64,000 nucleotides of DNA from a virus. Lineage: Duplodnaviria; Caudoviricetes. Location of the stretch: positions 32,001 to 96,000 of IMG/VR virus record IMGVR_UViG_3300038673_000220; one strand, given 5' to 3'. Of the stretch, positions 8,196 to 45,444 are shown one piece after another. Both the position numbers and the translations under genes were made by a program. Position 1 is the stretch's first letter. Each line of letters starts with the position of its first letter. A model generated the notes under the pieces. The model ran no database searches. It was not told where the DNA came from and saw only the letters and a program-made list of their open reading frames with translations.

Positions 8196-9749
8196 TTAAT
8201 TTAAACTTCCTAAGATAGATTCGATATCATCTACCGAAGCTTTCTTATCACCATTTGAATAGATATTGCGAGATCCAGTAAAAGATGTTTCTAGATCATC
8301 AACGATACCTAATTCAGGATCGAACTGATAACAAACGAATTTGTGTTTCTCTGGAGTGTTATCGACGTATCGGTGTTTACCCCAATTCATAGTTAACCAA
8401 GAATTACCTGCATCGTCTTTTTCAATCTCCAAATAGATTATCATGTCAACCTCACGGGCTATACCAGTAGCATCAGCAAAATGACGTTCAGAATATCTCT
8501 TAACAGGGTAAGGTATTCCAGAAGCAGCTATATCAGAAGCACCTTTGTTCAACTGATGAGCTGTAACTAAAGTATTGCCAGACGCTTTACAAAAGTTACA
8601 CACATTATTATACAATGACTGCAATAATGCGTGATTACCAGCTTGACTTGTTGAACCGAAATTCGTCAATTTCATTTGGCTCAAGTAATCAACAACAGTA
8701 GTGATGATCTGAAAACCAGCATTCTCGTATTTCTCGATCAGCGTAACGAATTCATTGTATCCAAAATACGCTGGTAAATACCTTTCGATAACGAGAACAT
8801 AATCATTCACATTGAAATAGCTGTATATCTCATTAACGATTTCATCTTCAGTCATATCAGGTGGAGGAACTGAACCTTTGATGGAGATATACATCTCTTT
8901 AAACATCTTGAACATATTCTGATACCCTTCATTTTCTAATGAGATGAAGAGGATCATCGGTATCTTACCAGGAGTTTTTGGTGGATTGTTGTACTTAACG
9001 ATCCATTGTGGTATTTTTGTTAATATGCCGGATTTGTAATTATGCGTCCTTGCAGCGAATATAACACTCTCACCTAGAGCTAATCCACCACTCGGGCCAA
9101 ATAACTGATTCAGTCCTTGTAATCCAGTTTTAATAACATGATTCACACGACGTTCTTGAAAGAGCTTATAAGCACTCCGTATGCTTCCGATATCACTTGT
9201 GTTGATAGTTTCGACAGGACCGCTTTTATTCGTCAAGCTGTTTACATTGTCAACAGTTGATTGGAACTCTGAAATCAGAGAGCGTATATTCCTCAAAGAC
9301 TCTTTCTGACTCTCTATAGAATATGACAACTCGCTTTCTTTAAGATGACCATACAATTTCGCTATATAGCTCTTACTCATGAACCACATAACGATATTGT
9401 TCAATCTGTCCGTGATATCAACGATACGATTCGCTGAAATTTCGTCATTTACAACAGACTTTAAAGCGTCACGAATGTATCCATCTTTCCTGAATATCTG
9501 ATTCGAAAGATGTCGTTTGAATATATTCAAGATATCGATCTTGTTATCTTCGATATTCAATTGATTAGAAATGATCTCTTTGCAGAGCGTTATATATAAT
9601 TCACAATATTTGATATCTGAATCATTGATTGATCCAAGATTATCATTATACGTATTGAATATAGAATCAACAAGCTTATGCATCTTTTCATCGTTACGAT
9701 GAACTAAGACCTTTAATAGATCAAAGAATACAGTTGCGTCCAGTAGCAT
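8196..9749 (-). CDS. dnaB: DnaB-like replicative helicase (phiKZ gp118-like)
   Basis: Divergent Walker A ARTHNYKSG, FISLEN, VVDYL, TAHQL, GKHR. Divergently placed before a head gene and the capsid gene as in phiKZ. Confidence 0.85.
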   Translation of the reverse strand: MLLDATVFFDLLKVLVHRNDEKMHKLVDSIFNTYNDNLGSINDSDIKYCELYITLCKEIISNQLNIEDNKIDILNIFKRHLSNQIFRKDGYIRDALKSVVNDEISANRIVDITDRLNNIVMWFMSKSYIAKLYGHLKESELSYSIESQKESLRNIRSLISEFQSTVDNVNSLTNKSGPVETINTSDIGSIRSAYKLFQERRVNHVIKTGLQGLNQLFGPSGGLALGESVIFAARTHNYKSGILTKIPQWIVKYNNPPKTPGKIPMILFISLENEGYQNMFKMFKEMYISIKGSVPPPDMTEDEIVNEIYSYFNVNDYVLVIERYLPAYFGYNEFVTLIEKYENAGFQIITTVVDYLSQMKLTNFGSTSQAGNHALLQSLYNNVCNFCKASGNTLVTAHQLNKGASDIAASGIPYPVKRYSERHFADATGIAREVDMIIYLEIEKDDAGNSWLTMNWGKHRYVDNTPEKHKFVCYQFDPELGIVDDLETSFTGSRNIYSNGDKKASVDDIESILGSLN

Positions 9750-9883
9750 CGTGCAATCCTTTGTTATGATTATTGAAATGATCCCTCATCTAAATGATGG
9801 TTCAGCCTTTTACTATTAAATTTACTCCTAATATGTAATACCATCATATGAAATAAAATAACCTTCACACTAAGGAGATTTCG

Positions 9884-23507: not shown

Positions 23508-26500
23508 ATGCAGCCGAATATTCCTATTCAATATTCAACTTTACGAGAGTACATTGAAGCTATTTCTGGTGCTCAAGTTACGACGTTGACGCAAACTGTT
23601 GATGCTAATTATGCAACGATGATGGGTTTGGTCAATGATCTTCAAACATCGATCGCTGATATCGAATCATTAAATGCGAATATCAGTGCGAACCCAGACG
23701 TTGTTCTTAACACTTCACATCGTCTGACTATTGCTGGTAACCCACATCATGTAACGAAAGCAGAAGTTGGATTAAGTGAGGTACCGAACTACGACTTTAC
23801 TGCTGAAGTTCAGATCAACAATGCGAAAGTTGGTATAACCCAAGCTCAAGCTGATGCTATCATTATTAACTCAGCGAAAGTTGGTATCACTGTTCAGCAA
23901 GCTGCCGATATCATTTCCAATAATGATCATCGTGCTATCGTATCTGGGAATCCACATCAGGTCACCAAAGCTGAAGTAGGTTTGGGTAATGTCCCGAACA
24001 TCGATTGTACGAATGCTTCGAATATCACTTCGGGTATTTTACCAACGAGTGTTCTTCCTCCATTAGCTATTACTGATACATATTCAGTTGCTAATGAGGC
24101 CGAGCAGTTAGCTCTTACTGTACAAAAAGGTGATATTGCTGTTCGTACAGATCTTTCAAGATCGTATATCAATCAGACTGGTGGTAATGAGGCCATGACT
24201 GATTGGCAGGAGCTCATGACTCCAACTGATCTTGTTCTCTCTGTTAATGGCTATACTGGAACAATCCAACTTGTTACTACAGATATTCCAGAAGGTACCA
24301 ACTTCTATTATACAGAAGCACGTGTATCTAACAATATTGATGTTGCTACCAATACTGCAAACCGTCACACTCACGGAAATAAAGCTATCCTTGATGCAAC
24401 AACTGCATCTTTTACTACTGAGATTTCCAACACCATCGATCTCAACTCCGCTCATCGTGAGACAACTGTAGGTAATCCGCATCAGGTTACTAAAGCTGAT
24501 GTAGGTTTGAGTAATGTACCAAACCACGATTTTACCGATGAGGTTGCCGCCAATACTGCAAAGGTCGGTATCACTCCTGAACAAGCTGCTGACATTGTAG
24601 CTGCTAATGTTCATAGAACTACTACCAGCGGTAATCCTCACGCTGTAACTAAAGCTGAAGTTGGTTTAGGTAATGTACCGAACACTGATTTTACAGCTGA
24701 TGTTCTTGCAAATAATGCCCATCGTGCAATTATTACGGGTAATCCGCATCAAGTTACTAAAGCCGAGGTTGGCTTAAGTAATGTTCCAAATCATGATTTC
24801 ACTGCCGAAGTTGATGCGAATACTGCAAAGGTTGGTATCACTCCTGAACAAGCTGATGCTATCGTAGCCAATACTGCAAAGGTTGGTATCACTCCTGAGC
24901 AAGCTGCTTCTATCGTAGCATCTGACGCTCATATTGCAACTGTTACTGGCAATCCTCACCAAGTAACGAAAGCTGAAGTTGGCTTAAGTGAAGTCCCCAA
25001 CGTTGACTGTACCAATGCGAGTAATATCACTACTGGTACTCTACCAACAAGTGTTCTTCCTGCATTGGCTATCAGTGAAACTTTTGTAGTTGCCGATGAA
25101 ACCGCTCAGTTGGCTCTCACTGTACAGAAAGGTGATGTTGCTGTTCGTACCGATGAAGGAAAATCTTACATCAATGCGACTGGTGATAACACTGCGATGA
25201 CTGATTGGCAGGAGCTCTTAACTCCTACTGACACCATCTTAAGTGTAAATGGTCAAACTGGTAACGTCATTCTAACCACTACGAATATTGCAGAAGGGAC
25301 TAATCTCTATTATACTGAGGCTCGTGTATCTGCGAATGTTGATGTTGCTCTTAATACAGCGAACCGTCATAACCATACCAATAAATCTATTCTTGATGGT
25401 ACTGAAGAATCTTTCACTACTGTATTAAAGAATAATATCTTAACCAATAATGATAAGGTTGGTATCACCACTGAACAAGCTGATGCTATCGTGGCCAATA
25501 CTGCAAAGGTTGGTATCACACCACAGCAAACTGCTGATATTATCTCCAACAACACTCATCGTGCTATCGTATCTGGTAATCCGCATCAAGTCACTAAAGC
25601 TGAAGTTGGATTAGGTTTGGTTCCGAATCACGACTTCACCGATGAGGTTGATGCGAATACTGCGCATAAGAATACTATTACTGGTAATCCGCATCAAGTT
25701 ACTAAAGCTGAAGTAGGATTAGGTAACGTACCGAATACTGACTTTACTGGTGATATCGCTGCATCGAATGCTCATATTGCAACTATCACTGGTAATCCGC
25801 ATCAGGTCACTAAAGCTGAAGTAGGATTGGGTCTTGTACCTAATCATGACTTTACAGCTGAAGTTGATGCGAATACTGCAAAGGTTGGCATCACTCCTGA
25901 ACAAGCTGCTGCAATTGTAGCGAATACAGCACACGCTGCTATCGTAACTGGTAATCCGCATCAAGTTACTAAAGCTGAAGTAGGATTAGGTAATGTTCTA
26001 AACATTGATACGACAAATGCTACGAATATTACTTCAGGTATGCTTCCTTCAAGCGTACTTCCTCCTATTGCTATCACTGATACATATTCTGTAGCAAGTG
26101 AAGCTGAGCAATTAGCTCTTGATATCCAACGTGGTGATATCGCTGTTCGTACAGATATTAATCGTTCGTACATTAATAAACTTGGTGTTAACGAAGCTAT
26201 GTCTGATTGGCAGGAGCTTTTAACACCAATCGACTCCGTTCTTTCTGTTAATGGATTCACTGGAGCTGTCGTTCTGACTACATCCAGTATTTCTGAAGGG
26301 ACTAATCTCTATTACACTGAAGATCGTGTTATCAATAACGTTGATGTTGCTACCAATACTGCAAATCGTCATAATCATGGAAATAAAGCGATCCTTGATG
26401 GAACGACTGCATCATTCACCACTGAGATCTCCAACACCATCGATCTCAACTCTGCGCACCGTTCTACTATCACCGGAAATCCTCATCAAGTAACGAAAGC

Positions 26501-29500
26501 AGAAGTGGGATTAAGTGATGTTCCTAACCACGACTTCACTGCTGAAGTTGCTGCCAATACTGCAAAGGTTGGTATCACTCCTGAACAAGCTGCATCTATC
26601 GTTGATGCAAATACGCATATCGCAACTGTAACGGGTAATCCTCATGCAGTTACTAAAGCTGAAGTCGGTTTAGGTTTGGTTCCGAATCACGACTTCACCG
26701 ATGAGGTTAATGCTGCTACAACTCATATCGCAACTGTTACTGGTAATCCTCATCAAGTTACTAAAGCAGAGGTTGGTCTGAGTGAAGTACCTAACCACGA
26801 CTTCACAGCTGAAGTTGCTGCGAACACTGCAAAGGTTGGTATCACTCAGGAACAAGCTGATGCTATCGTAGCCAATACTGCAAAGGTTGGTATTACAGTT
26901 GAGCAAGCTGCTTCTATCGTAGCATCTGACGCTCATATCGCTACTGTTACCGGCAATCCTCATCAAGTTACTAAAGCAGAGGTTGGTCTGAGTGAAGTAC
27001 CGAATGTGGATTGTACGAATGCTTCGAATATCACTACTGGTACTCTACCAACAAGTGTTCTTCCTGCATTGGCTATCAGTGAAACCTACGTTGTTGCTGA
27101 TGAGACTGAACAGTTAGCCCTTACTGTACAGAAGGGTGATATCGCTGTTCGTTCTGACCTTAATCGCTCGTATATCAACTCCACTGGTGATAACACTGCG
27201 ATGACTGATTGGCAGGAGCTCTTAACTCCTACTGATACTATTCTCACAGTTAACGGCCAGGTTGGTACTGTAGTTCTTACTACTACGAATATCGAAGAGG
27301 GTACAAACCTCTATTACACTGAAGCACGTGTATCTGCAAATGCTGATGTTGCAGCAAATACTGCAAATCGTCATAATCATGCAAATAAAGCTATCCTTGA
27401 TGGTACTGAAGAATCCTTCACTACCGTTTTGAGAAACAACATCCTTACTAATAACGATAAGGTTGGTATCACCACTGAACAAGCTGATGCTATCGTAGCC
27501 AATACTGCAAAGGTTGGTATCACTGCTCAACAGGCTGCCGATATCGTTTCTAACAATACTCACCGTGCTATCGTAACTGGAAATCCGCATCAAGTCACCA
27601 AGACTGAAGTAGGATTAAGCGAAGTACCGAATCACGATTTCACTGCTGAAGTAAACGCCAATACTGCACATCGTGGTATTTTGGAAGGTAACCCGCATCA
27701 AGTTACTAAAGCTGAAGTTGGCTTAAGTGAAGTACCGAATCATGATTTCACTGCAGAAATGCTTATCGCATTAACTCACGTTGAAACAATTACCGGTAAT
27801 CCGCATCAAGTCACTAAAGCTGAAGTAGGTCTCGGTAGCGTTCCGAATCATGATTTCACTGCTGAAGTTGCAGCCAATACTGCTAAGGTTGGTATCACTC
27901 CTGAACAAGCTGCAGCTATCGTAGCCAATACTACTCATGCTGCCATTGTTGCTGGTAATCCTCATCATGTAACAAAAGCTGAAGTTGGTCTGAGTGAAGT
28001 ACCTAACGTCGACTGTACCAACGCCTCGAATATTACTACAGGAACTCTTCCTTCAAGTGTTCTTCCAGCTATCGCTATTACTGAAACTTTTGTAGTATCG
28101 AACGAGCTTGAGCAACTTTCTTTAGATGTTCAAGAAGGTGATATCGCTGTTCGTTCTGATCTTAATCGTACCTTTATCAATATCACTGGTACGAATAACG
28201 CTATGACTGATTGGCAAGAACTCGCTACTCCTACTGATACCATTTTGAGTGTTAATGGTCAGACTGGCACTGTAGTTCTTACCACGACGAATATTGACGA
28301 AGGTACTAACCTTTATTATACAGAAGCACGTGTATCTAACAACGTTGACGTTGCAGCAAATACTGCAAATCGCCATAACCATGCAAATAAAGCTATCCTT
28401 GATGCAACAACCGCCTCTTATACGACTGCGGATGTTGATACGTTAGCTGCTGCTGATGCTCATCGTTTAACAACCACTGGTAATCCGCATCAGGTCACTA
28501 AAGCTGAAGTTGGTTTGGGTAATGTACCTAACTTAGATTTCACTTTAGATATTGCTGCGTCGAATGCTCATATCGCAACTGTAACTGGTAATCCGCATCA
28601 GGTCACGAAAGCTGAAGTAGGATTGGGTCTTGTACCTAATCATGACTTTACAGCTGAAGTTGATGCGAATACTGCAAAGGTTGGCATCACTCCTGAACAA
28701 GCTGCTGCAATCGTAGCGAACAGCGCTAAAGTTGGTATCACTCCTGAGCAAGCTTCTGATATCACTTCTAATAATAATCATAGATTAACTGTTACTGGTA
28801 ATCCGCATAATGTAACAAAAGCTGAAGTTGGATTAGGCTCTGTACCTAACCATGACTTTACAGCCGAAGTTGCTGCGAATACTGCAAAGGTTGGTATCAC
28901 TACTCAGCAGGCTGCTGATATCATTTCTAATAATGAACATCGAGCCATCATTTCTGGTAATCCGCATCAAGTTACTAAGGCTGAAGTTGGGTTGAGCGAT
29001 GTTCCTAATCACGACTTCACAGCTGAAGTTAATGCGAATACAGCTCATACTGCTATCGTAGCTGGTAATCCGCATCAGGTAACGAAAGCTGAAGTTGGTC
29101 TTGGTAATGTACCTAATGTCGATTGCACCAACGCTAGCAATATCACCACTGGTACCTTACCTTCTTCAGTATTACCTCCATTAGCAATCACTGATACTTT
29201 TGTTGTTGCTGACGAAGCTGCTCAACTTGCATTGGTTGTTCAGAAAGGTGATGTTGCAGTACGTACTGATGAAGGTCGCTCGTATATCAACTCCACTGGT
29301 GATAACACTGCGATGACTGATTGGCAGGAGCTCTTAACTCCTACTGATACCATCTTGAGTGTTAATGGCCAAACTGGAACAGTTGTTTTAACTACGACAA
29401 ACGTTGCTGAAGGGACTAATCTCTATTATACTGAGGCTCGTGTATCTGCAAATGCTGACGTAACACTTAATACAGCTAATCGTCACAATCATACAAATAA

Positions 29501-31547
29501 AGCAGTTCTTGACGCTACAAATGAATCGTTTACTTCTTCTATCTTAGCTGAAATCAATATTAACACTGCAAAGGTTGGTATCACTGTTCAGCAGGCTGCT
29601 GATATTGAAGCAAATAATTCTCATCGTTTAACTACGAGTGGTAATCCTCATGCTGTAACCAAAGCTGAAGTAGGTTTGGGTAATGTACCTAACTTAGATT
29701 TCAGTTCTGCTGTTGCTGCTAATACAGCTCACGCTAATACCGTTGCAGGTAATCCGCATCAGGTTACTAAAGCTGAAGTTGGTTTAGGTAATGTACCAAA
29801 TACTGACTTTACAGCTGATGTTGCTCTGAATAACGCTCATAGAACAACTACTACTGGTAATCCTCATCAAGTTACTAAAGCTGAAGTTGGGTTGGGTCTG
29901 GTACCGAATCATGATTTCACTGCTGAGGTTGCTGCCAATACTGCAAAGGTTGGTATCACCACTGAACAAGCTGCCGATATCGTTTCTAACAACGAGCATC
30001 GTGCAATCACCAGCGGTAATCCTCACGCTGTAACAAAAGAAGAAGTTGGTTTAGGTTTAGTACCAAACCACGACTTCACTGATGAAGTTAATGCTAATAC
30101 TGTATTGGCTCATAGTCATGCAAATAAACCTATTCTTGATGCTACAACCTCAGCCTTCACTACTGAACAAGCTGATGAAATCGTAGCATGTCATTCACAT
30201 CGTATTGATACAAGCACTAATCCTCACGGTATCACCCCGATCATGATCGGCGCTGAAACTCCAGAAGGTGCTCAAACTAAAGCTGACACTGCTGAGCATA
30301 ATGCTAATCTGTATACTGATAGCTTTGTTCTTCAATCTCCGAATTCTTTGTTATTTGAAGCTGCATTGAGAAACTCCTTGGCACTTGATAAGGGTGTTGG
30401 TATGATCAACTTCTCAAGAGCCTCTGTTGCAAATCATCTTGATCGTTACGGTATCGTTCGTGCTTCTGAAGCAAACGTTCCTCGTTTTAATAAAGATGGT
30501 TTGTTGATTGAAGGTCGGAGTACTAACTACTTTGTTGGATCTAAAGATGCTAACGTTTTTGATAAAACAAATTGTCGTGTTGAACTCAATAAACAATACG
30601 ATGCATCTTTTGAAGCTACTGTTGATATCATTTCGATCGATGTTCCTGCAACTGATTGGAAACTTTCAAAAGTTATCACTGACATGTATCTTGAAGAAGG
30701 TAAATACGTTACATTCAGTGTTCGTTTAAAATCTATCACTGATACCCAAGTTGAACTTGCTATTCAAGATTCTGCAGGTATCAACGTTGGGGATTTCGGT
30801 GGAACTAAAGTTATCACTCTGAATGAGTATCTGACTCGTTATGATTTCACTATATTCGTTGAAAACGCAACAACTGGTCATCCCGTTGTCGAGGTTCGTG
30901 GTTTAACGAAAACTGAAGGTGAAAGCTTCGGTATCGTCGATATGCAAGTTGAGCCTTTACCGTTCGTATCGAGTGTTATCGAAACTGTTGATGCGCCAGT
31001 TACTCGTGAACCTGATCGTGTTTATATTCCTTATGTTGAGAACTATCCTGGAAGCTTAGTTGATAAAACCATCAGCTTTGATGTAAATGTTATCGGTACT
31101 ACTGAAGATGTTCATCGTTGTTTCTGTTCTGGCGATCTTCAGATGTATATTGGTAACGGTACTCCTGGAAATCATATGACTCGTGTTGGTATGTCTTCTG
31201 GTGAAGAGACTGAATGGGTTGAGAAGATCGGTAAGTTCCGATTCGGTATCACCTATGATGCTACTTTACAGGAATTGAAGATGTTCCATGATGGTGAGAA
31301 AGTTGCAACGAAAACTAATGTAACTAAGGCTGATCCGCCTTTGGTTGATTCAACTTCTTATGATCAATTCCTTGCTGAAGTTTATCCAACTCTTGATCCT
31401 TCTTCTTATGGGTTAGCTATCTTACAGATCCCGCTTGATGTAATGCAAGCTACCATCCGTTTCGATACTGGTAATCCTTTTATGACTATCTCTAATATCA
31501 GGATCACTGACAAAGTGTTGACTGAGAAACAAATGCTTACTTTCTAA
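23508..31547 (+). CDS. Giant modular virion fibre protein (2679 aa)
   Basis: About 28 NPHxVTKAEVGL (phage tail repeat-like) modules, six knob units and a C-terminal GLLIEG.STN / QVE..PF.SS.I.T...PVTR domain seen in phage fibres. Confidence 0.85.
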   Translation: MQPNIPIQYSTLREYIEAISGAQVTTLTQTVDANYATMMGLVNDLQTSIADIESLNANISANPDVVLNTSHRLTIAGNPHHVTKAEVGLSEVPNYDFTAEVQINNAKVGITQAQADAIIINSAKVGITVQQAADIISNNDHRAIVSGNPHQVTKAEVGLGNVPNIDCTNASNITSGILPTSVLPPLAITDTYSVANEAEQLALTVQKGDIAVRTDLSRSYINQTGGNEAMTDWQELMTPTDLVLSVNGYTGTIQLVTTDIPEGTNFYYTEARVSNNIDVATNTANRHTHGNKAILDATTASFTTEISNTIDLNSAHRETTVGNPHQVTKADVGLSNVPNHDFTDEVAANTAKVGITPEQAADIVAANVHRTTTSGNPHAVTKAEVGLGNVPNTDFTADVLANNAHRAIITGNPHQVTKAEVGLSNVPNHDFTAEVDANTAKVGITPEQADAIVANTAKVGITPEQAASIVASDAHIATVTGNPHQVTKAEVGLSEVPNVDCTNASNITTGTLPTSVLPALAISETFVVADETAQLALTVQKGDVAVRTDEGKSYINATGDNTAMTDWQELLTPTDTILSVNGQTGNVILTTTNIAEGTNLYYTEARVSANVDVALNTANRHNHTNKSILDGTEESFTTVLKNNILTNNDKVGITTEQADAIVANTAKVGITPQQTADIISNNTHRAIVSGNPHQVTKAEVGLGLVPNHDFTDEVDANTAHKNTITGNPHQVTKAEVGLGNVPNTDFTGDIAASNAHIATITGNPHQVTKAEVGLGLVPNHDFTAEVDANTAKVGITPEQAAAIVANTAHAAIVTGNPHQVTKAEVGLGNVLNIDTTNATNITSGMLPSSVLPPIAITDTYSVASEAEQLALDIQRGDIAVRTDINRSYINKLGVNEAMSDWQELLTPIDSVLSVNGFTGAVVLTTSSISEGTNLYYTEDRVINNVDVATNTANRHNHGNKAILDGTTASFTTEISNTIDLNSAHRSTITGNPHQVTKAEVGLSDVPNHDFTAEVAANTAKVGITPEQAASIVDANTHIATVTGNPHAVTKAEVGLGLVPNHDFTDEVNAATTHIATVTGNPHQVTKAEVGLSEVPNHDFTAEVAANTAKVGITQEQADAIVANTAKVGITVEQAASIVASDAHIATVTGNPHQVTKAEVGLSEVPNVDCTNASNITTGTLPTSVLPALAISETYVVADETEQLALTVQKGDIAVRSDLNRSYINSTGDNTAMTDWQELLTPTDTILTVNGQVGTVVLTTTNIEEGTNLYYTEARVSANADVAANTANRHNHANKAILDGTEESFTTVLRNNILTNNDKVGITTEQADAIVANTAKVGITAQQAADIVSNNTHRAIVTGNPHQVTKTEVGLSEVPNHDFTAEVNANTAHRGILEGNPHQVTKAEVGLSEVPNHDFTAEMLIALTHVETITGNPHQVTKAEVGLGSVPNHDFTAEVAANTAKVGITPEQAAAIVANTTHAAIVAGNPHHVTKAEVGLSEVPNVDCTNASNITTGTLPSSVLPAIAITETFVVSNELEQLSLDVQEGDIAVRSDLNRTFINITGTNNAMTDWQELATPTDTILSVNGQTGTVVLTTTNIDEGTNLYYTEARVSNNVDVAANTANRHNHANKAILDATTASYTTADVDTLAAADAHRLTTTGNPHQVTKAEVGLGNVPNLDFTLDIAASNAHIATVTGNPHQVTKAEVGLGLVPNHDFTAEVDANTAKVGITPEQAAAIVANSAKVGITPEQASDITSNNNHRLTVTGNPHNVTKAEVGLGSVPNHDFTAEVAANTAKVGITTQQAADIISNNEHRAIISGNPHQVTKAEVGLSDVPNHDFTAEVNANTAHTAIVAGNPHQVTKAEVGLGNVPNVDCTNASNITTGTLPSSVLPPLAITDTFVVADEAAQLALVVQKGDVAVRTDEGRSYINSTGDNTAMTDWQELLTPTDTILSVNGQTGTVVLTTTNVAEGTNLYYTEARVSANADVTLNTANRHNHTNKAVLDATNESFTSSILAEININTAKVGITVQQAADIEANNSHRLTTSGNPHAVTKAEVGLGNVPNLDFSSAVAANTAHANTVAGNPHQVTKAEVGLGNVPNTDFTADVALNNAHRTTTTGNPHQVTKAEVGLGLVPNHDFTAEVAANTAKVGITTEQAADIVSNNEHRAITSGNPHAVTKEEVGLGLVPNHDFTDEVNANTVLAHSHANKPILDATTSAFTTEQADEIVACHSHRIDTSTNPHGITPIMIGAETPEGAQTKADTAEHNANLYTDSFVLQSPNSLLFEAALRNSLALDKGVGMINFSRASVANHLDRYGIVRASEANVPRFNKDGLLIEGRSTNYFVGSKDANVFDKTNCRVELNKQYDASFEATVDIISIDVPATDWKLSKVITDMYLEEGKYVTFSVRLKSITDTQVELAIQDSAGINVGDFGGTKVITLNEYLTRYDFTIFVENATTGHPVVEVRGLTKTEGESFGIVDMQVEPLPFVSSVIETVDAPVTREPDRVYIPYVENYPGSLVDKTISFDVNVIGTTEDVHRCFCSGDLQMYIGNGTPGNHMTRVGMSSGEETEWVEKIGKFRFGITYDATLQELKMFHDGEKVATKTNVTKADPPLVDSTSYDQFLAEVYPTLDPSSYGLAILQIPLDVMQATIRFDTGNPFMTISNIRITDKVLTEKQMLTF
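23700..30250 (+). repeat. Hierarchical coding repeat: 108-nt and 51-nt modules inside 1002-nt super-repeats
   Basis: DWQ-encoding GATTGGCA at 24201, 25203, 26205, 27207, 28209 and 29319. Boundaries approximate. Confidence 0.9.
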
Positions 31548-31569: not shown

Positions 31570-31612
31570 AAAATCCACACAGGCACCTTGATTGGTGCCT
31601 GTGTGGATTTTT
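31570..31612 (+). terminator. Intrinsic terminator, 18-bp stem
   Basis: AAAATCCACACAGGCACC-N6-GGTGCCTGTGTGGATTTT. Confidence 0.9.
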
Positions 31613-31614
31613 AA

Positions 31615-31625
31615 ATATATATTAT
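31615..31625 (+). promoter_or_regulatory. Phage promoter-like motif ATATATATTAT
   Basis: Exact motif directly after a terminator. Confidence 0.65.
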
Positions 31626-31669
31626 TATACAGAATGATGTATATAATAGAACTTTCAAGGAGATATCCA

Positions 31670-32065
31670 ATGAGTATTGGTGAAATAGTAAAAGTAATGA
31701 CCGAGGATATGGTTGCAAATAATTGAGTGTGTATGGAGTTAGAAGATTTTGCATATACTACTTTTCATCATAAACCTAATAATACAGAGATATTAGTATA
31801 TTGTGGTGTAAAATACAAATCAGAATCTGAAATCGATAACTTATTCGCTGGAATAATACATACTTTGGTTGTTCATATAATCAAAAACGATTATCCTGAA
31901 GGTATTAATGTAAATAATTGGGTCAAATTCGAAAAGGTTCCAAATACTGATAAAGATCATGTTATGTATCGACAATATTTTAACGATCCTACGTTTGATA
32001 ACTTCATTACTTATAAATTAGAAGATGAATCATTTCGAATGTTATCAAATAACGATATTAATTAA
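31670..32065 (+). pseudogene. DUF4262-like gene interrupted by an in-frame TGA at 31724-31726 (nonsense allele, readthrough or sequencing error)
   Basis: SD AAGGAG plus ATG 31670 is in frame with ORF 31727. FAYT...EILV..G resembles ORF 32469. Confidence 0.55.
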
Positions 32066-32072
32066 GTTATAA

Positions 32073-32456
32073 ATGATAAAAGATGAGGTCCTTATCATGG
32101 AAATACTTACAATATCTGGCAACAATGAAGTTGATATAAAAATAACTTCTGGAGAAAACGATATATCAAGCGATGACTCATTTGAAGAAACACTTCGTAC
32201 TATTATCGAAACTCAGAAACCAACTATTAAATTTATCAACATATCTATAGATAAAAACGCTATGATGTGTTTTTGTTTATCGGAGGGTTTCGATACAAAA
32301 AGTGTTCATGATTTTGAGGTATGTTTAATGATGGGAGATAGATTCTATAGAACGATTACCGACCTTAAGAAAAAGATCAAAGAGGATCGTAATATAGTTT
32401 TGAGTGTTACTATCGACATTCCACATGGATTAAATCCAATTAGAAAATTAAATTGA
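32073..32456 (+). CDS. Hypothetical protein
   Basis: ORF in the operon; SD GAGG may favour ATG 32097. Confidence 0.7.
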   Translation: MIKDEVLIMEILTISGNNEVDIKITSGENDISSDDSFEETLRTIIETQKPTIKFINISIDKNAMMCFCLSEGFDTKSVHDFEVCLMMGDRFYRTITDLKKKIKEDRNIVLSVTIDIPHGLNPIRKLN

Positions 32457-32468
32457 GAGGATATCACA

Positions 32469-32963
32469 ATGGCTATTGAAGAAATCACTAATATGACTTT
32501 TCTTGATAAAATAAAGAGCTGCATCAAGAAATATAAATGCATGATAATGGCTGTTAACCATAATACATGTGACAAAGATGATATCAAGGATAACTATGAT
32601 AAGATCAATGATGCTTTTGTTTACTCAATTGGTCGTAAAGAATTTGGTCATCCAGATATTTTGATATTATGTGGTTCAGATAAAGAGAATCCTATCTCAT
32701 CTGATCAATTGAGTAAACGCTTTAATTACGCATTACAAGCATTAATAGTTTTAATGGAAGAATGGGATGATAACCCTGTTAAACCTGGGCACACCTTTGG
32801 TGGTAAAGATACTATCATAATCAAATTCATTTCAAGAGAATATGAGGATTATGATGATTTTATCGAATGTTGTAAAGAGGATATTGCCATCCAAGCTGGT
32901 AACTATTATGGTACCTACGATTATGAATTGATTGTAGGTGTTTTTGTACAAGATATAGAGTAG
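32469..32963 (+). CDS. DUF4262-like protein
   Basis: FVYSIG...FGHPDILILCG motif. Confidence 0.6.
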   Translation: MAIEEITNMTFLDKIKSCIKKYKCMIMAVNHNTCDKDDIKDNYDKINDAFVYSIGRKEFGHPDILILCGSDKENPISSDQLSKRFNYALQALIVLMEEWDDNPVKPGHTFGGKDTIIIKFISREYEDYDDFIECCKEDIAIQAGNYYGTYDYELIVGVFVQDIE

Positions 32964-33088
32964 CTGTATAGTTATACAGCCACGTCTTCTATAGGTCGAA
33001 TCATCTGATTTATTTCAAGCGATGCGGTGATCTGAGAAGGTAAAAATGGAAACGAATGGAATCATTCATAATTTAGGAGAATCTTATC

Positions 33089-33892
33089 ATGGACGCAATG
33101 GAAATTTACAAATCTATCAATAGTGATTCGACTGATGAAGAGAAGCTTGAAGCCTGCAAAGCTATCTTGGAAGCTCCTGGTAATAGAGCTTGGACTATCC
33201 GTTTAGCTAAATATTACGGTTGGTGGGATAATAGTGTAGCTGAACCATGTAAAGCTATCTTGGAAGCTCCCGGTGATAAAGCTATGGCTATCAGTTGTGC
33301 TAAATCTGAAGGTTGGTGGAGGGATGAGGTAGCCGAGCCATGTAAAGCTATCTTGAAAGCTGGTGGTGATAGAGCTATTGCCATTTATTGTGCCAAACGA
33401 GATGATTGGTGGAGAGATGAGGTAGCTGAGCCATGCAAAGCTATATTGGAAGCTCCCGGTGATAAAGCTACGGCTATTTGTTGGGCTAAAATTAATGATT
33501 GGTGGAAAGATAGCGTAGCTGAACCATGTAAAGCTATCTTGGAAGCTCCTGGTAATAGAGCTTGGGCTATCTATAATGCTGTTGATGACGGTTGGTGGAA
33601 AGATAGTGTAGCTGAGCCATGCAAAGCTATATTGGAAGCTTCCGGTGATAAAGCGATATCTATCTGTCTTGCCAAATCTGATGGTTGGTGGGATAATAGT
33701 GTAGCTGAACCATGTCAAGCTATCATGGAAGCTTCTGGTGATAGAGCTGTGGCTATCAGTTGTGCTAAATCTGAAGGTTGGTGGAAGGATGAGGTAGCTG
33801 AGCCATGTCAAGCTATCATGGAATCTTCAGGTGATAGAGATATGGCTATTTATTACGCAGTTAGTATTGGGTGGTGGAAAGAATCAAGATAA
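33089..33892 (+). CDS. Helical tandem-repeat protein, 8 x 31 aa
   Basis: Consensus EPCKAILEAPGDxAxAIxxAKxxGWWxDxVA; SD AGGAG. Confidence 0.9.
   Translation: MDAMEIYKSINSDSTDEEKLEACKAILEAPGNRAWTIRLAKYYGWWDNSVAEPCKAILEAPGDKAMAISCAKSEGWWRDEVAEPCKAILKAGGDRAIAIYCAKRDDWWRDEVAEPCKAILEAPGDKATAICWAKINDWWKDSVAEPCKAILEAPGNRAWAIYNAVDDGWWKDSVAEPCKAILEASGDKAISICLAKSDGWWDNSVAEPCQAIMEASGDRAVAISCAKSEGWWKDEVAEPCQAIMESSGDRDMAIYYAVSIGWWKESR
33149..33892 (+). repeat. 93-nt coding tandem repeat x8
   Basis: Direct alignment of units with no indels. Confidence 0.95.
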
Positions 33893-33897
33893 GATAT

Positions 33898-33938
33898 ATT
33901 GAGAAGCTTCCATTTACGGAAGCTTCTCAATTATTTTT
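33898..33938. terminator. Terminator between convergent genes, 14-bp stem
   Basis: ATTGAGAAGCTTCC-N6-GGAAGCTTCTCAAT plus T tract. Confidence 0.85.
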
Positions 33939-35486
33939 TTATTCTTCAGTTGTAAATAATTCTAGATAAGAATTGATGTCAAGAACAAGATAACTTACAT
34001 GATCATAAACAAAGTTCACCCAGTTAAGACCACCAGATTCTATTTTAGCGAATGTTAATATATTAGTTTCACCAGCTGCAACAGACAATGCTTGATTAAG
34101 TTTAACGCTCCATTCGCGAGTATTTGATGTCATTTCTGACCAACCGTTATCAGTTGTTGAGAAGTCTCGATACGTCGGATGAATAGTGAGTAAACTTGAA
34201 TAGAGGTTCGTATCAGCTGGAGCTACACCTACAAAATACTTTTCATAAGCAGCTGTCATGATTTCACGATAAGGATCTGTTGCTCTAGCGATAAGTTCCG
34301 TAACAGTATTTATTTTTTCAATAAGATCAGTGCCTTTGATGATCGATGGATAAATATCAGCATTTGTAAGTTTAGTGATATTATCATAAAAAGGAATGAG
34401 CAAGAAGGCTGAATGATAGAAGATATCAGGTAAGATGATTTCCCAAATAGCCCTTGAACCGACACCACTATTAAGAAGGTATTCGGCAATAGCGTTTCGA
34501 GCCTCAAGTGAATCAGGACAACGTCCACGATAAATCAAACTAAATACAGCCATGTAAGTATTACCGTTATAGATATAACGTGTTTCGAATAAGTACATAC
34601 CTGTCTGATCACGATTAGTAAGCTCTGGTTGGAGAAGAGAATCTGACCATTTCTTACTGAGTATAGCTGAGTTGATAGGATCTGTCAATCCTGAAGGGTT
34701 GAGTAATGTTTGTAAATCTAATGGTGGAACTATGTTGATAATAGTTGATTCAGGATATTCTGACTTAAAGAGTGACTTATTGAACCAGATCTTGAATTCA
34801 ACAACAACGCTATTGATGATGAATTTGAACGAGAAATACCCTGGAACGAGTCGGTGTATGTTGACACCACCATAAACCATAACGACTGATTTCGCAGAAG
34901 ATACTTTGATAGAGTTCGTTACGTATCCGAGGAAATTCGTTGGATCATTCACCAAGACACTATTGATATCTGATAATGAATCAGAAGCAATCGTACCGTA
35001 AGATAGGTACTCAATAACGTTAAAGACACGTTGTTGCTCTAATGATGAGATCGTTTCGAGCGCTGATTTTTCATCATCTGATAATTTAGCATAATCAAGA
35101 GTGAATTTTATTTCACGAGTATTTGATATACTCACATAACCTTCAGGGAGAGAATCGTTGATAAAATCAAGATTATCTAGATCTGGGTATTGTGCAAGAG
35201 TAACTGTTTCTGAAGGTTCAATTAAAAGATGAGCTAATCCTTTTTGATATACATTAGTTATTGTATCAAGGAATATGAGGGTGTCGTCAATTTCTGCAAT
35301 AGCTTCTTGACGAAAAAGGATAGGTAATCTTGATGCACGTAAATCACCTAACTCAGTAGGTTGTATAAAAAATTCGATCGTGTCTCGATCAAGATAACCG
35401 CACGGAATAGCTAGTTTCTCAAGATTCACAAACCTACTTGCGCTATCGATGAGAGATCTATCTGAGAGAAATCCCTGAATAGACAT
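33939..35486 (-). CDS. Putative phiKZ-like virion structural protein
   Basis: Long ORF divergent from a structural operon; W..ILPDIF....F..IP.Y resembles phiKZ-family virion proteins. SD GGAGG favours the MSIQG start. Confidence 0.55.
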   Translation of the reverse strand: MSIQGFLSDRSLIDSASRFVNLEKLAIPCGYLDRDTIEFFIQPTELGDLRASRLPILFRQEAIAEIDDTLIFLDTITNVYQKGLAHLLIEPSETVTLAQYPDLDNLDFINDSLPEGYVSISNTREIKFTLDYAKLSDDEKSALETISSLEQQRVFNVIEYLSYGTIASDSLSDINSVLVNDPTNFLGYVTNSIKVSSAKSVVMVYGGVNIHRLVPGYFSFKFIINSVVVEFKIWFNKSLFKSEYPESTIINIVPPLDLQTLLNPSGLTDPINSAILSKKWSDSLLQPELTNRDQTGMYLFETRYIYNGNTYMAVFSLIYRGRCPDSLEARNAIAEYLLNSGVGSRAIWEIILPDIFYHSAFLLIPFYDNITKLTNADIYPSIIKGTDLIEKINTVTELIARATDPYREIMTAAYEKYFVGVAPADTNLYSSLLTIHPTYRDFSTTDNGWSEMTSNTREWSVKLNQALSVAAGETNILTFAKIESGGLNWVNFVYDHVSYLVLDINSYLELFTTEE

Positions 35487-35648
35487 AAAAACCTCCAACA
35501 GAATTTATAATAAAAGTAATATAACCTAATGTCGATCTTAAAGTCATATAATTGTGAGAATGAGATACCTTTTTAATATAATGTTATTTCAAGTACCGAT
35601 TCTATGAAATTACGTGGGTATTTATCCTAATTAAGGAGGATCCAGCAT

Positions 35649-42414: not shown

Positions 42415-43587
42415 TTATATCAAACTGCAGATGATGTCAAATTTGCTTTTGATGTTTTCAACGACGAACGGTTGACTAGCATTTGACCAAAATCTCGTAT
42501 TAGCTAATCGCTTACTCACAACATCGAAAAGCTTTTTGAGTTCTTGACTCCTATTATTTTCCGGTTGTAAACCATATATTCCGATAAATGTAGCTAGTAT
42601 GAAATACTCTTTAACGAATTCTAACCATCGGTATTGAGCTCCACCATGGAATCCAATATAATGATTATCTATCGTTGTATTGATGAGATCCAATAGGCTA
42701 GTTTCTTTATCAACGTATAACGAAGTGATTACTTCATCTGGTTTCACTTTTCCATGAACGCACTTATCGATAAGATCTTCGATTTCTTGAATAACAGATC
42801 TTCTATCGTTTAAAACAAACGTTGACTTATCAGTTGTTGTGAATTTCTCTTCAGTATATGAAAGATCAGGATCTATCGATTTAAACACTACGATATCGTA
42901 GATAGATTTCAAAATCCAGGTCCTCAAGTTGTCTTCCAATAAAGGTATCAGGCATGTTTTAAAGATGAATGGATAGTTATTTGTATTGTCAACAAATTCT
43001 TCCGGAAAGAGTAAACGATACTTCGTGTAAAGCATCAGTAGCTTGACAACGTTGATACTAAAGATAACCTCATATGGAGGATTCTTTTGATACTTCAATT
43101 TACTCGTAATGATGTCAAGTTCGATATCGCGTGAATCATTTGAAAGCATCGTTAAAGGATGAAGTTTCATCCAATCGTTAAAATTATTACTTCCAAATGG
43201 AGTTGTTTCTACGATATCGATATCTTCAGAAATAATCAGATATTCAGCTGTTTTGTATTTCTGACTATAAATGAAATTCTTATACCTGATAGGGTATTGA
43301 CGTATGAAATCAGAATACGCTGGACTCTCATATTCATTAACGATCTTAGCAAATCTATCAAAGTCATTATGAAATTTCAATAGGTAAGGAATATCAGCTC
43401 GCGTTATAAGAGAATTCAAGAAATCAATACCCATTGATGGGATTGGATCATTTGTAAATCTTAAGGTTCTTTCTTCAAGTCGTCTTAAGCCTATCTCTAA
43501 ATTACTTAAATAATTCTTAAGATCAACTATTTGGATTTTGTAGCTATGAGGTATCCTTGAGATGAAGGTTCTGAGATCTGTAAACAT
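42415..43587 (-). CDS. Hypothetical protein
   Basis: 390-aa ORF with SD GAGGA; no family recognised with confidence. Confidence 0.75.
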   Translation of the reverse strand: MFTDLRTFISRIPHSYKIQIVDLKNYLSNLEIGLRRLEERTLRFTNDPIPSMGIDFLNSLITRADIPYLLKFHNDFDRFAKIVNEYESPAYSDFIRQYPIRYKNFIYSQKYKTAEYLIISEDIDIVETTPFGSNNFNDWMKLHPLTMLSNDSRDIELDIITSKLKYQKNPPYEVIFSINVVKLLMLYTKYRLLFPEEFVDNTNNYPFIFKTCLIPLLEDNLRTWILKSIYDIVVFKSIDPDLSYTEEKFTTTDKSTFVLNDRRSVIQEIEDLIDKCVHGKVKPDEVITSLYVDKETSLLDLINTTIDNHYIGFHGGAQYRWLEFVKEYFILATFIGIYGLQPENNRSQELKKLFDVVSKRLANTRFWSNASQPFVVENIKSKFDIICSLI

Positions 43588-43675: not shown

Positions 43676-43792
43676 TTGATTGAATAAACTGATATTTCAC
43701 ATGCTAATCTGGAGAATGCTCATTATGGACGCTGTAGAAATTTATTAGTTGAAAATTGAATGTACTTCAGAATAAATGAATCACAATTTCAA

Positions 43793-43944: not shown

Positions 43945-45444
43945 ATGATCATTAACAATGAAGGACAGCAGGTAAACCAGCCGCAAACTGACGCAGCACC
44001 GAAAGCATTTTCTCTGAGAGATGTATTGCAGCGATGCAATTCTCAGAATGGTTGGTCTGGTGTCGGTCAAGATTACATCAATTCAATCCGTACTCAAATC
44101 GAGGATCCCGCAGCTACTATTAAGGGATCTATGCATCATATCAGCGATACAGCTGTAGCGTTTAATCATGAAGATAACGGTATCGTTCTTGTTCATGAAG
44201 GCGACATGATGAATTACCAGGAGCTTATCAATGAGGTTAAGCTCTACAACGCAAAACAGGCATATTACAGTGCTTTTCCGAAAAAGAAGCTGTTGAACAT
44301 CGTCACTGTTAATCGGTTCATGTTCAACCGACCGATTCAGATGGCCTCTTATATCAATAATCTGTTCTTGTCTCAGAGCGATATGATTAAGAGCTTCAAT
44401 TATCAATCTTTCGGATCTCAGAATAGTATTGATATCAACACTGATATCGGAGTTGTTCGTCGATTCTTCGAGATGCATTCGACGACTCCAGTATTCTGTG
44501 GAAACTTCGGATTCGTAGCATCTCTTGCGGATAAGAATTCCAACCGCAGTGCTGGTTATAATCAACCGACACCGATGTTTGGTGTTTCTGGTTATGTTGA
44601 GTTTATCAGGAATGATTCTGATGGAACATTCACTCCTATCGTTCATGTAACTGATATTCTTTCGGTTCTTCCTACCAATAAAATCTTGGCTCTTGCTTTA
44701 CCGCTCATCGGTGGAGTAATCATTTCTCGCAATATCTGGAAACAGCCATTCTCAGCGATTGCGAAAGATAACAATATCAATATTGGTAATCTCATCATCG
44801 ATGCCAATAGCGGTAAGCCTTATGAAGTGAAATCTGACGCTGATTTCCGTCAGATGTTCCGTCAGTATATCGGAGATCCGCTTCTTTGTATTGATATCAA
44901 ATCTGGCGGAGCTGATATTCCAGGCTTGAATCGTTTGATTCGTCAGTCTGAGCATATTGCTGTATTCAATGAGATCCTCGAGTTCTTCGGTGAGGCTCCT
45001 TTGAACGCTTGTCCGCCGATTGCTCAGAACATCTTCCGAGAAATCATCGGTGCTTCTGATATCGCCAAGAACAATATGGTAGAACCCATTGACAGTCGTG
45101 ATATCAATTACCTCTACACGGTTGCAAAAGCCAAATACAACCCTCGTCTGGATTATCTCTTGGCTCGTAATGAGTATGATCCGGTTCGACGATTCGAGGC
45201 TATCAAAGAGATTTATGGTGACATCACACCTACTCACATCTCTGCAACTACCATGTTCCACAACGACTTCCTTGGTCGTATCGTCAACAGACTGAATGAA
45301 ACGATCAAAATCGATATCCCGAATGTTGGTGATACGATGATGATCAATATGAATGAGTTTGCATCTAAGGCGTATAAACCGAATATGCCTATGTTTGGTC
45401 AAGGACAGAGCTCATTCAATATCGGTGGTTGGTCCTCTTTCTAA
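43945..45444 (+). CDS. chmA: Chimallin (phage nuclear shell protein) candidate
   Basis: Immediately upstream of the nvRNAP beta' gene as phiKZ gp54-gp55; two promoter motifs; high-expression codon bias; Q-rich N-tail; F.P.V.VTDI...LALAL...W...F...NIG.L pattern. Mostly synteny-based. Confidence 0.6.
   Translation: MIINNEGQQVNQPQTDAAPKAFSLRDVLQRCNSQNGWSGVGQDYINSIRTQIEDPAATIKGSMHHISDTAVAFNHEDNGIVLVHEGDMMNYQELINEVKLYNAKQAYYSAFPKKKLLNIVTVNRFMFNRPIQMASYINNLFLSQSDMIKSFNYQSFGSQNSIDINTDIGVVRRFFEMHSTTPVFCGNFGFVASLADKNSNRSAGYNQPTPMFGVSGYVEFIRNDSDGTFTPIVHVTDILSVLPTNKILALALPLIGGVIISRNIWKQPFSAIAKDNNINIGNLIIDANSGKPYEVKSDADFRQMFRQYIGDPLLCIDIKSGGADIPGLNRLIRQSEHIAVFNEILEFFGEAPLNACPPIAQNIFREIIGASDIAKNNMVEPIDSRDINYLYTVAKAKYNPRLDYLLARNEYDPVRRFEAIKEIYGDITPTHISATTMFHNDFLGRIVNRLNETIKIDIPNVGDTMMINMNEFASKAYKPNMPMFGQGQSSFNIGGWSSF

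Follow-up and report, generated by a model that had tools for sequence, protein, structure and literature searches.

The open reading frame (ORF) described here lies at positions 33089-33892 on the + strand of a 64,000-nucleotide stretch of viral DNA (Duplodnaviria; Caudoviricetes; positions 32,001 to 96,000 of IMG/VR record IMGVR_UViG_3300038673_000220), referred to below as the window. It encodes a 267-residue protein and is preceded by a ribosome-binding site (RBS), AGGAG, at 33075-33079 (+ strand), nine bases ahead of the ATG. An N-terminal cap (residues 1-20; 33089-33148, + strand), conserved among paralogues, is followed by eight gap-free units of 31 residues each. A reading of the sequence alone had likened this protein to engineered alphaRep and DARPin binders, with a nearly fixed repeat frame and five hypervariable positions along one helix face, and had proposed a phage-encoded, shufflable binding protein such as an anti-defence binder. 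The gene is confirmed as a phage gene. Its source is an uncultured phiKZ-like giant phage; the window also encodes a capsid protein that matches PhiKZ_MCP (E 8e-36) and an RNA polymerase beta subunit of the phiKZ type.

The repeat frame is as regular as the sequence-only reading had stated. The units start at residues 21, 52, 83, 114, 145, 176, 207 and 238, exactly 31 apart, and Tandem Repeats Finder reports a period of 93 nt, with 7.5 copies, 77% matches and a score of 689. The residues at unit positions 15, 18, 19, 22 and 23, which that reading had singled out as variable, match all eight of its quoted strings exactly: W-RL-YY in repeat 1 (33149-33241, + strand, as are all the units), M-SC-SE in repeat 2 (33242-33334), I-YC-RD in repeat 3 (33335-33427), T-CW-IN in repeat 4 (33428-33520), W-YN-DD in repeat 5 (33521-33613), I-CL-SD in repeat 6 (33614-33706), V-SC-SE in repeat 7 (33707-33799) and M-YY-SI in repeat 8 (33800-33892), which is the most divergent unit and includes the stop codon. 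Repeats 2 and 7 are 92% identical at the nucleotide level. The same five columns have the highest entropy within the gene (1.9-2.25 bits), followed by columns 27 (1.5) and 10 (1.4), whereas E1, C3, A5, I6, G11, I17, A20, W25, W26 and A31 are invariant over the eight units. The variable residues are aromatic in 9 of 40 cases and cysteine in 5 of 40. Mean internal identity is 76% over all nucleotides and 84% on frame codons. The units share rare codons (GTA for 7 of 7 valines at position 30, TTG for 6 of 6 leucines at position 7), and the five variable codons differ between units at several bases.

The protein contains 13 cysteines in 267 residues. One, at the start of the first helix, is invariant in each unit (107 of 109 units family-wide), and five units carry another at variable position 18 or 19. 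Such a cysteine content is unusual for a cytoplasmic helical repeat protein; packing of the core, metal binding or redox chemistry are candidate roles.

Structure prediction yielded the solenoid that the sequence-only reading had anticipated, built of helix-turn-helix repeats. For residues 1-175, AlphaFold2 returned a confident alpha-solenoid with a predicted local distance difference test score (pLDDT) of 96.6 and a predicted template-modelling score (pTM) of 0.90; for the full-length protein, modeled with an alignment of family members, the pLDDT was 85.8. The lower values in units 6-8 probably reflect the small number of homologues of that length. In the cap region, the model places helices at residues 3-9 and 16-28. 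All modeled units are built alike, from helix A (positions 2-8; 7 residues), a turn (9-12; A-P-G-D), helix B (13-22; 10 residues), and a 10-residue loop that contains G-W-W and comprises positions 23-31 together with E1 of the next unit. On a helical wheel of helix B, the conserved residues A14, A16, I17, A20 and K21 occupy one half and positions 15, 18, 19, 22 and 23 lie opposite. The variability moment along this helix is 0.69 at 100 degrees per residue, with permutation p values of 0.006 for the window gene and 0.005 for 105 independent units taken from other proteins, in which the pattern recurs. The variable residues thus fall on one face of the second helix, as proposed, and the geometry of the solenoid suggests that this face is exposed to solvent.

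The repeat protein belongs to a family of its own. A search of 1.84 billion representative proteins found only 64 relatives with E values of at most 0.001 (at most 1e-10 for 34 of these), in metagenome assemblies from ENA, JGI and Logan. The public sequencing runs that contain window DNA come from bioreactor, landfill and wastewater samples, and the member-bearing contigs examined are from related phiKZ-like phages in wastewater-type metagenomes. The contig carrying member P0008 encodes PhiKZ_MCP in a region whose gene sizes and order resemble the MCP region of the window, and the contig carrying member P0004 has a block of like gene sizes and order, the likeness being judged by size and order alone. 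The family is rare and multi-copy, and its distribution is best explained if it is restricted to the lineage of phiKZ-like jumbo phages. A chimallin identity was considered for the 499-residue ORF at 43945-45444 (+ strand) and was dropped, there being no match in Pfam or among Protein Data Bank (PDB) sequences; two other large ORFs checked as chimallin likewise had no PDB-sequence match. For this reason the phage is termed phiKZ-like here, with no claim that it forms a nucleus.

Members of the family contain 2-8 units each. About two thirds, including those with the longest arrays, consist of repeats only; about one third carry C-terminal domains of 60-236 residues that are unrelated to one another, and two have a long N-terminal extension ahead of the array. 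The family tends to occur in several copies per genome. The record that contains the window (149 kb, about 54% complete; G000) has three members, the window gene and two more at G000 2-487 and G000 1253-1816, the latter divergent. Contig L004 has four members within 21 kb, among them an eight-unit protein of 269 residues. L004 and the record of the window share no other genes that would support orthology of the two eight-repeat genes. Contigs L007 and L010 each carry four tandem family genes. One of the L007 genes (9340-9798) is called as two ORFs of 85 and 66 residues within an open five-unit frame of 151 residues, and may be a frameshifted or decaying copy.

The division into a fixed frame and a variable face holds across the family. 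Over 113 units, C3, I6, G11, I17, A20, W25 and W26 form the invariant set and GWW is almost invariant; positions 22, 19, 23 and 15 are the most variable (3.2-3.5 bits), followed by 27 and 18. Per-position entropy in the window gene correlates with that in all other members (105 independent units; Spearman 0.82). The 54 units of the close subfamily carry 53 distinct five-residue signatures, in which 22% of the residues are aromatic and 5% are cysteine, and positions 15, 18 and 19 favor hydrophobic or aromatic residues. The window protein and the eight-unit L004 protein share no variable signature, yet the mean nucleotide identity of the frame between the window gene and the L004 and L010 genes is about 80%. 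The neighboring virion protein is only 66% identical in amino acid sequence to its L010 copy (P0069).

Substitution rates follow the same division. In pairwise Nei-Gojobori comparisons, the frame has pN 0.10-0.17 and pS 0.34-0.46, and the variable sites have pN 0.47-0.56; in the window gene alone, variable-site pN is 0.56 versus a frame pS of 0.34. A parsimony count on the tree of 54 units gave ratios of dN to global dS of 1.2-1.4 at positions 15, 19 and 23, 0.98 at position 22 and 0.71 at position 18, with values of 0-0.67, nearly all below 0.5, at frame sites. The frame is under strong purifying selection; the five variable sites, which are biased in composition, change at close to the neutral rate, and diversifying selection at them is possible rather than demonstrated. 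As regards a diversity-generating retroelement, no match to a reverse transcriptase (RVT_1) was found in the 149-kb record, which is about 54% complete.

We compared the protein with known repeat families. The sequence-only reading had recognized no repeat family, and the searches bore this out. Pfam hmmscan returned only sub-threshold repeat noise (e.g., Cornifin); PHROGs, NCBIfam and PDB sequences gave no match; 50,697 GenBank phage records gave none by megablast with 8 kb of DNA or by tblastn with the protein; and pattern scans of IMG/VR gave no confirmed match. At the level of structure, the best score in the ESM Atlas was 0.83, below the useful level, and Foldseek found no match in PDB or BFVD at E 0.001 or better. 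Exhaustive structural alignment returned HEAT/ARM-type solenoids only, led by the symplekin HEAT domain (Z 6.7, root-mean-square deviation (rmsd) 4.9 Å over 163 residues), with alphaRep-containing entries at Z 4.7 (7p0h_A; rmsd 4.8 Å, 134 residues aligned) and Z 4.6 (4xl5_C) and the PBS-type HEAT protein YibA of E. coli at Z 4.5 (1oyz_A), all of these values being below the level that the aligner treats as specific for helical repeats. No HEAT family was listed for the window protein at E values up to 10, or for seven homologues at E 0.01. Alignment by hhalign of the 113-unit profile with the HEAT units of P0048 was weak (P 0.0036, probability 9%) and covered 26 columns in the expected register, and phmmer gave weak periodic matches to one HEAT protein and one ankyrin protein. 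The protein is a HEAT-like alpha-solenoid in the broad sense and represents a new sequence family.

The proposed likeness to alphaRep therefore holds only in a loose sense. Like the alphaRep and PBS-lyase HEAT-like units (Pfam HEAT_PBS/HEAT_2), the phage unit has 31 residues, two helices and a G-D turn, and stacks into an alpha-solenoid; as in alphaRep, variability lies on the second helix with a spacing of i, i+3/4, i+7/8, and weak periodic sequence alignments place phage helix B on the alphaRep variable helix. The positions randomized in alphaRep are 18, 19, 22, 23, 26 and 30 (PMC3754942); in the same weak alignment, only three of the five phage variable positions coincide with alphaRep ones. 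The phage units differ from HEAT_PBS units in having far shorter helices, of 7 and 10 residues, and in the invariant GWW of their 10-residue loop and a conserved cysteine, both of which HEAT_PBS lacks. What held, then, is the unit length and the two-helix HEAT-like topology; the absence of a Pfam HEAT match, the hhalign P value and the Z values of the two alphaRep entries speak on the other side, and the window protein is not a demonstrable member of the alphaRep family.

The comparison with DARPins did not survive. Ankyrin repeats have a period of 33 rather than 31, no Pfam Ank match was found, hhalign of the single-unit profile gave P 0.25, and the phage repeat has neither a TPLH-type motif nor a beta-hairpin; the protein is not ankyrin-like. 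The parallel with ankyrins is of another kind. The ankyrin families of poxviruses and giant viruses are multi-copy, often carry a C-terminal effector domain and are rapidly gained and lost. Ankyrins, which are used as binders, and the phage proteins are both made of short helical repeats and form multi-copy, virus-encoded families with rapid gain and loss. Kinship with DUF4116 (PF13475) was raised by a similar opening motif, E-x-C-x-x-A-[VI]...G, in another small helical repeat and by gene neighborhood. It was rejected, as there was no Pfam match and hhalign gave P 0.16; moreover, the hidden Markov model (HMM) of the family matched none of three DUF4116 proteins, and DUF4116 repeats have a period of 24 rather than 31 and no GWW. 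DUF4116 proteins do share accessory islands with the family (L004 14346-17327, L007 8769-9266 and L011 11601-11987).

In mode of evolution, the WD40, ANK and TPR repeats of fungal NOD-like receptors (NLRs) such as het-d/het-e offer a parallel. These repeats combine high internal conservation (80-100%) with a small number of hypervariable codons where the interaction surface is predicted to lie, and a role in non-self recognition has been proposed for them (PMC11761791). Closely similar units with hypervariable codons, differences in repeat number between strains and families of paralogues are common to both systems, a likeness of evolutionary mode and not of homology. The phage repeats differ in forming a HEAT-like solenoid in a virus, in their lower internal identity (76% of nucleotides, 84% on frame codons), in the lack of a signaling domain and in that diversifying selection is not statistically shown. 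By analogy, then, the fungal NLR repeats are the nearest evolutionary counterpart and the alphaRep/PBS-HEAT unit is the nearest architectural one.

Comparison of public contigs over window positions 31600-35500 revealed rapid turnover at the locus. The sister strain L009, represented by a 16.8-kb Logan contig, is 86-89% identical to the window at the nucleotide level in the flanks, and its virion protein falls into the same 90% cluster. Its slot following the 168-residue ORF holds an unrelated 79-residue ORF and a 91-residue family member that has another N-terminus and two units only, versus eight in the window. A strain in run X4 lacks the ORFs at 31727-32456, the DNA being joined from 31667 to 32498. 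Relatives at a greater distance also have this slot, flanked by the gene for a protein of about 2680 residues and by the virion-protein gene, although in L012 the contig ends within the former. Between the two flanking genes lie four unrelated small genes in L010, a single DUF4116 gene in L011 and two small genes in L012. The slot, window 31600-33900, is an accessory island whose content differs in each relative examined.

A second site of turnover may lie elsewhere in the window. The four tandem family genes of L010 adjoin a 59%-identical orthologue of the 390-residue gene at 42415-43587 (- strand), in the same relative orientation. Beside the latter gene in the window, upstream of the 499-residue gene, lies a seven-codon stub at 43725-43748 (+ strand; MDAVEIY followed by a stop) that looks like the beginning of the repeat gene in both its RBS and its initial codons. 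Synteny with L010, which has four family genes at this place, makes it probable that the stub is what is left of a paralogue array that was deleted. The family is gained and lost quickly between related phages, in both repeat number and gene number, which fits the description of the protein in the sequence-only reading as shufflable.

The repeat gene is the last of a cassette that comprises a promoter-like motif, three small ORFs, the repeat gene and a bidirectional terminator. An intrinsic terminator hairpin (31573-31612, + strand; 15-bp stem, 6-nt loop, T-run) closes the preceding gene, and the cassette is headed by an AT-rich, early-promoter-like motif (31608-31630, + strand) with one mismatch to a motif that recurs in the genome, A-A-A-T-A-T-A-T-A-T-Y-A-T. 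The recurrent motif occurs 7 times in the window versus 1.5 expected, and at 28 sites in G000 (e.g., window 6386, 31615, 43665, 43793, 45599, 47777 and 59214), mostly on the + strand and, in the sequence contexts examined, in many cases immediately before the start of a gene. The motif agrees with the consensus described for early promoters of phages OBP and N1M2, and likewise with the phiKZ TATATTAC core (PMC7058600, Table 2). The three small ORFs, all on the + strand and without a recognized family, encode 112 residues (31727-32065; conserved in L009), 127 residues (32073-32456) and 164 residues (32469-32963; the orthologue of the 168-residue ORF in L009); the first two are those absent from the X4 strain. 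A 10-bp hairpin without a T-run on the + strand lies between the third ORF and the repeat gene (32960-32983). The cassette ends at a bidirectional intrinsic terminator (33898-33931; 14-15 bp stem, T-runs on both strands), which it shares with the converging virion-protein gene. Because the early-promoter motif and the terminators bound the cassette, and a copy of the motif (G000 564) likewise precedes the divergent paralogue at G000 1253-1816, we infer from these sequence signals that the cassette is probably transcribed early by the virion RNA polymerase.

The gene upstream of the cassette (23508-31547, + strand) encodes a 2679-residue protein with many copies of a short motif, G-N-P-H-x-V-T-K-A-E-V-G-L..., together with super-repeats of about 500 residues and a non-repeat C-terminal domain. 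Its relatives are of nearly the same length (2679 and 2695 residues), and Pfam gives spurious repeat matches only.

The interpretation that we favor, and to which we assign roughly even chances of being right, is that the protein is a rigid HEAT-like rod, made early in infection, whose helix B face is a recognition surface and which belongs to a changing repertoire of binders with likely host targets. The stacked units would form the rod around a core of the invariant cysteine, isoleucine, alanine and tryptophan residues, and along eight of them the helix B residues would line up as an extended stripe, unique to the protein and with many aromatic and hydrophobic side chains, that would serve as a protein-recognition surface. 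The gene would be expressed early, its cassette being transcribed by the virion RNA polymerase. The phage lineage would keep a changing set of such binders, some of them fused to unrelated, effector-like C-terminal domains, and new versions would arise by gain and loss of repeats, by duplication and deletion of genes and by substitution at the variable sites. Their likely use would be against host proteins, in takeover or counter-defence. A specific anti-defence role, as the sequence-only reading had suggested, is unlikely at best. We also regard as distinctly unlikely a stronger version, in which the family is a germline repertoire of modular binders whose units, each bearing a recognition signature of its own, undergo duplication, loss and recombination, both inside one paralogue and from one to another, generating new specificities against host immune or essential proteins.

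Several observations weigh against a binding repertoire. The hydrophobic or aromatic bias at positions 15, 18 and 19 might reflect partly buried side chains instead of a binding face. The per-site dN/dS analysis that the sequence-only reading had suggested did not demonstrate positive selection: over 54 units dN/dS did not significantly exceed 1 at any site (p of 0.34 or more throughout), and the pattern may therefore be a plain lack of constraint. Fast hypermutation is not in evidence, because members P0001-P0005 are each identical on 8-11 contigs and members of near-identical clusters differ at only 1-3 residues; the differences that were checked lie outside the variable positions. The unit counts rest on short-read assemblies, and the two-unit L009 gene comes from a k=31 assembly in which repeats may have collapsed. 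There was no RNA run among the public runs listed as containing window DNA.

Some of these observations would also fit a structural, spacer or chaperone-like solenoid whose function resides in the conserved frame and faces, such as the helix A face or the GWW loop, while the variable face merely drifts. The neutral rather than elevated rate at the variable sites fits such a protein, as do the strong conservation of the exposed helix A face (positions 4, 5, 7 and 8; pN 0.11) in the close subfamily, the near-invariance of GWW over the 113 units and the fact that the exposed side of any amphipathic helix is its least constrained part. Pure drift, however, leaves unexplained the aromatic and cysteine-rich composition of the variable sites, the maintenance of numerous paralogues in one genome, with hardly a signature repeated, and the rapid replacement of genes, typical of accessory genes, in an otherwise conserved slot; we consider this explanation somewhat unlikely. 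The C-terminal domains found in one third of the members, behind a conserved cap and array, suggest another function, that of an address or adaptor module that takes its fused domains to one place (the capsid for injection, a phage compartment or a phage complex), with the repeat-only proteins acting as regulators of that site or competitors for it. The two members with N-terminal extensions instead and the high conservation of the frame and N-cap between phages are in keeping with this role, but two thirds of the members have no extra domain, an address tag needs neither 2 to 8 units nor a face that differs in each unit, and no signal peptide or cleavage motif was seen on reading the sequence. 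An adaptor thus seems quite improbable. That the array is an artefact, either a misassembled repeat or a non-coding tandem repeat open by chance, is a notion we all but dismiss. Short-read assemblies can misjoin repeats (PMC11761791), and an antisense ORF of 202 residues is also open across the array. The latter is a by-product of the repeat, and misassembly is unlikely because the longest exact repeat within the gene is shorter than 40 nt, so that the array is resolved by assemblers with larger k, and because contigs from an independent wastewater run cover 32998-33352 with few differences. The RBS and terminator, the frame-specific conservation with synonymous change, the purifying selection on the frame, the confident fold and the homologues in many independent assemblies, including the eight-repeat protein of 269 residues, all speak for a real gene.

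Thus, the locus defines a real new repeat family, with a fixed frame and a variable face of unusual clarity and with rapid turnover of genes and units, in a clade of uncultured giant phages. For most of the genes that giant phages express early, no function is known. Here, all members of the family can be understood as variants of a single design, in which a rigid rod of repeats offers one face that can be programmed and which is present in many copies and quickly exchanged between close strains. The scaffold is compact (31 residues per unit, with helices of 7 and 10 residues), is predicted with high confidence and accepts nearly any residue at five positions, and it may therefore interest protein engineers. 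Should the variation be drift only, the proteins would still constitute a new repeat family and serve as a marker of accessory islands in this clade of phages. If the repertoire reading were true, fungal NLR shuffling or the assembly of lamprey variable lymphocyte receptors (VLRs) would have its viral counterpart in these proteins, which would also be a natural equivalent of alphaRep libraries. If host proteins are what the variable face binds, inhibitors of bacterial defence or housekeeping proteins could be drawn directly from the family, and repeat shuffling would join retroelement mutagenesis as a means by which phages diversify their binders.

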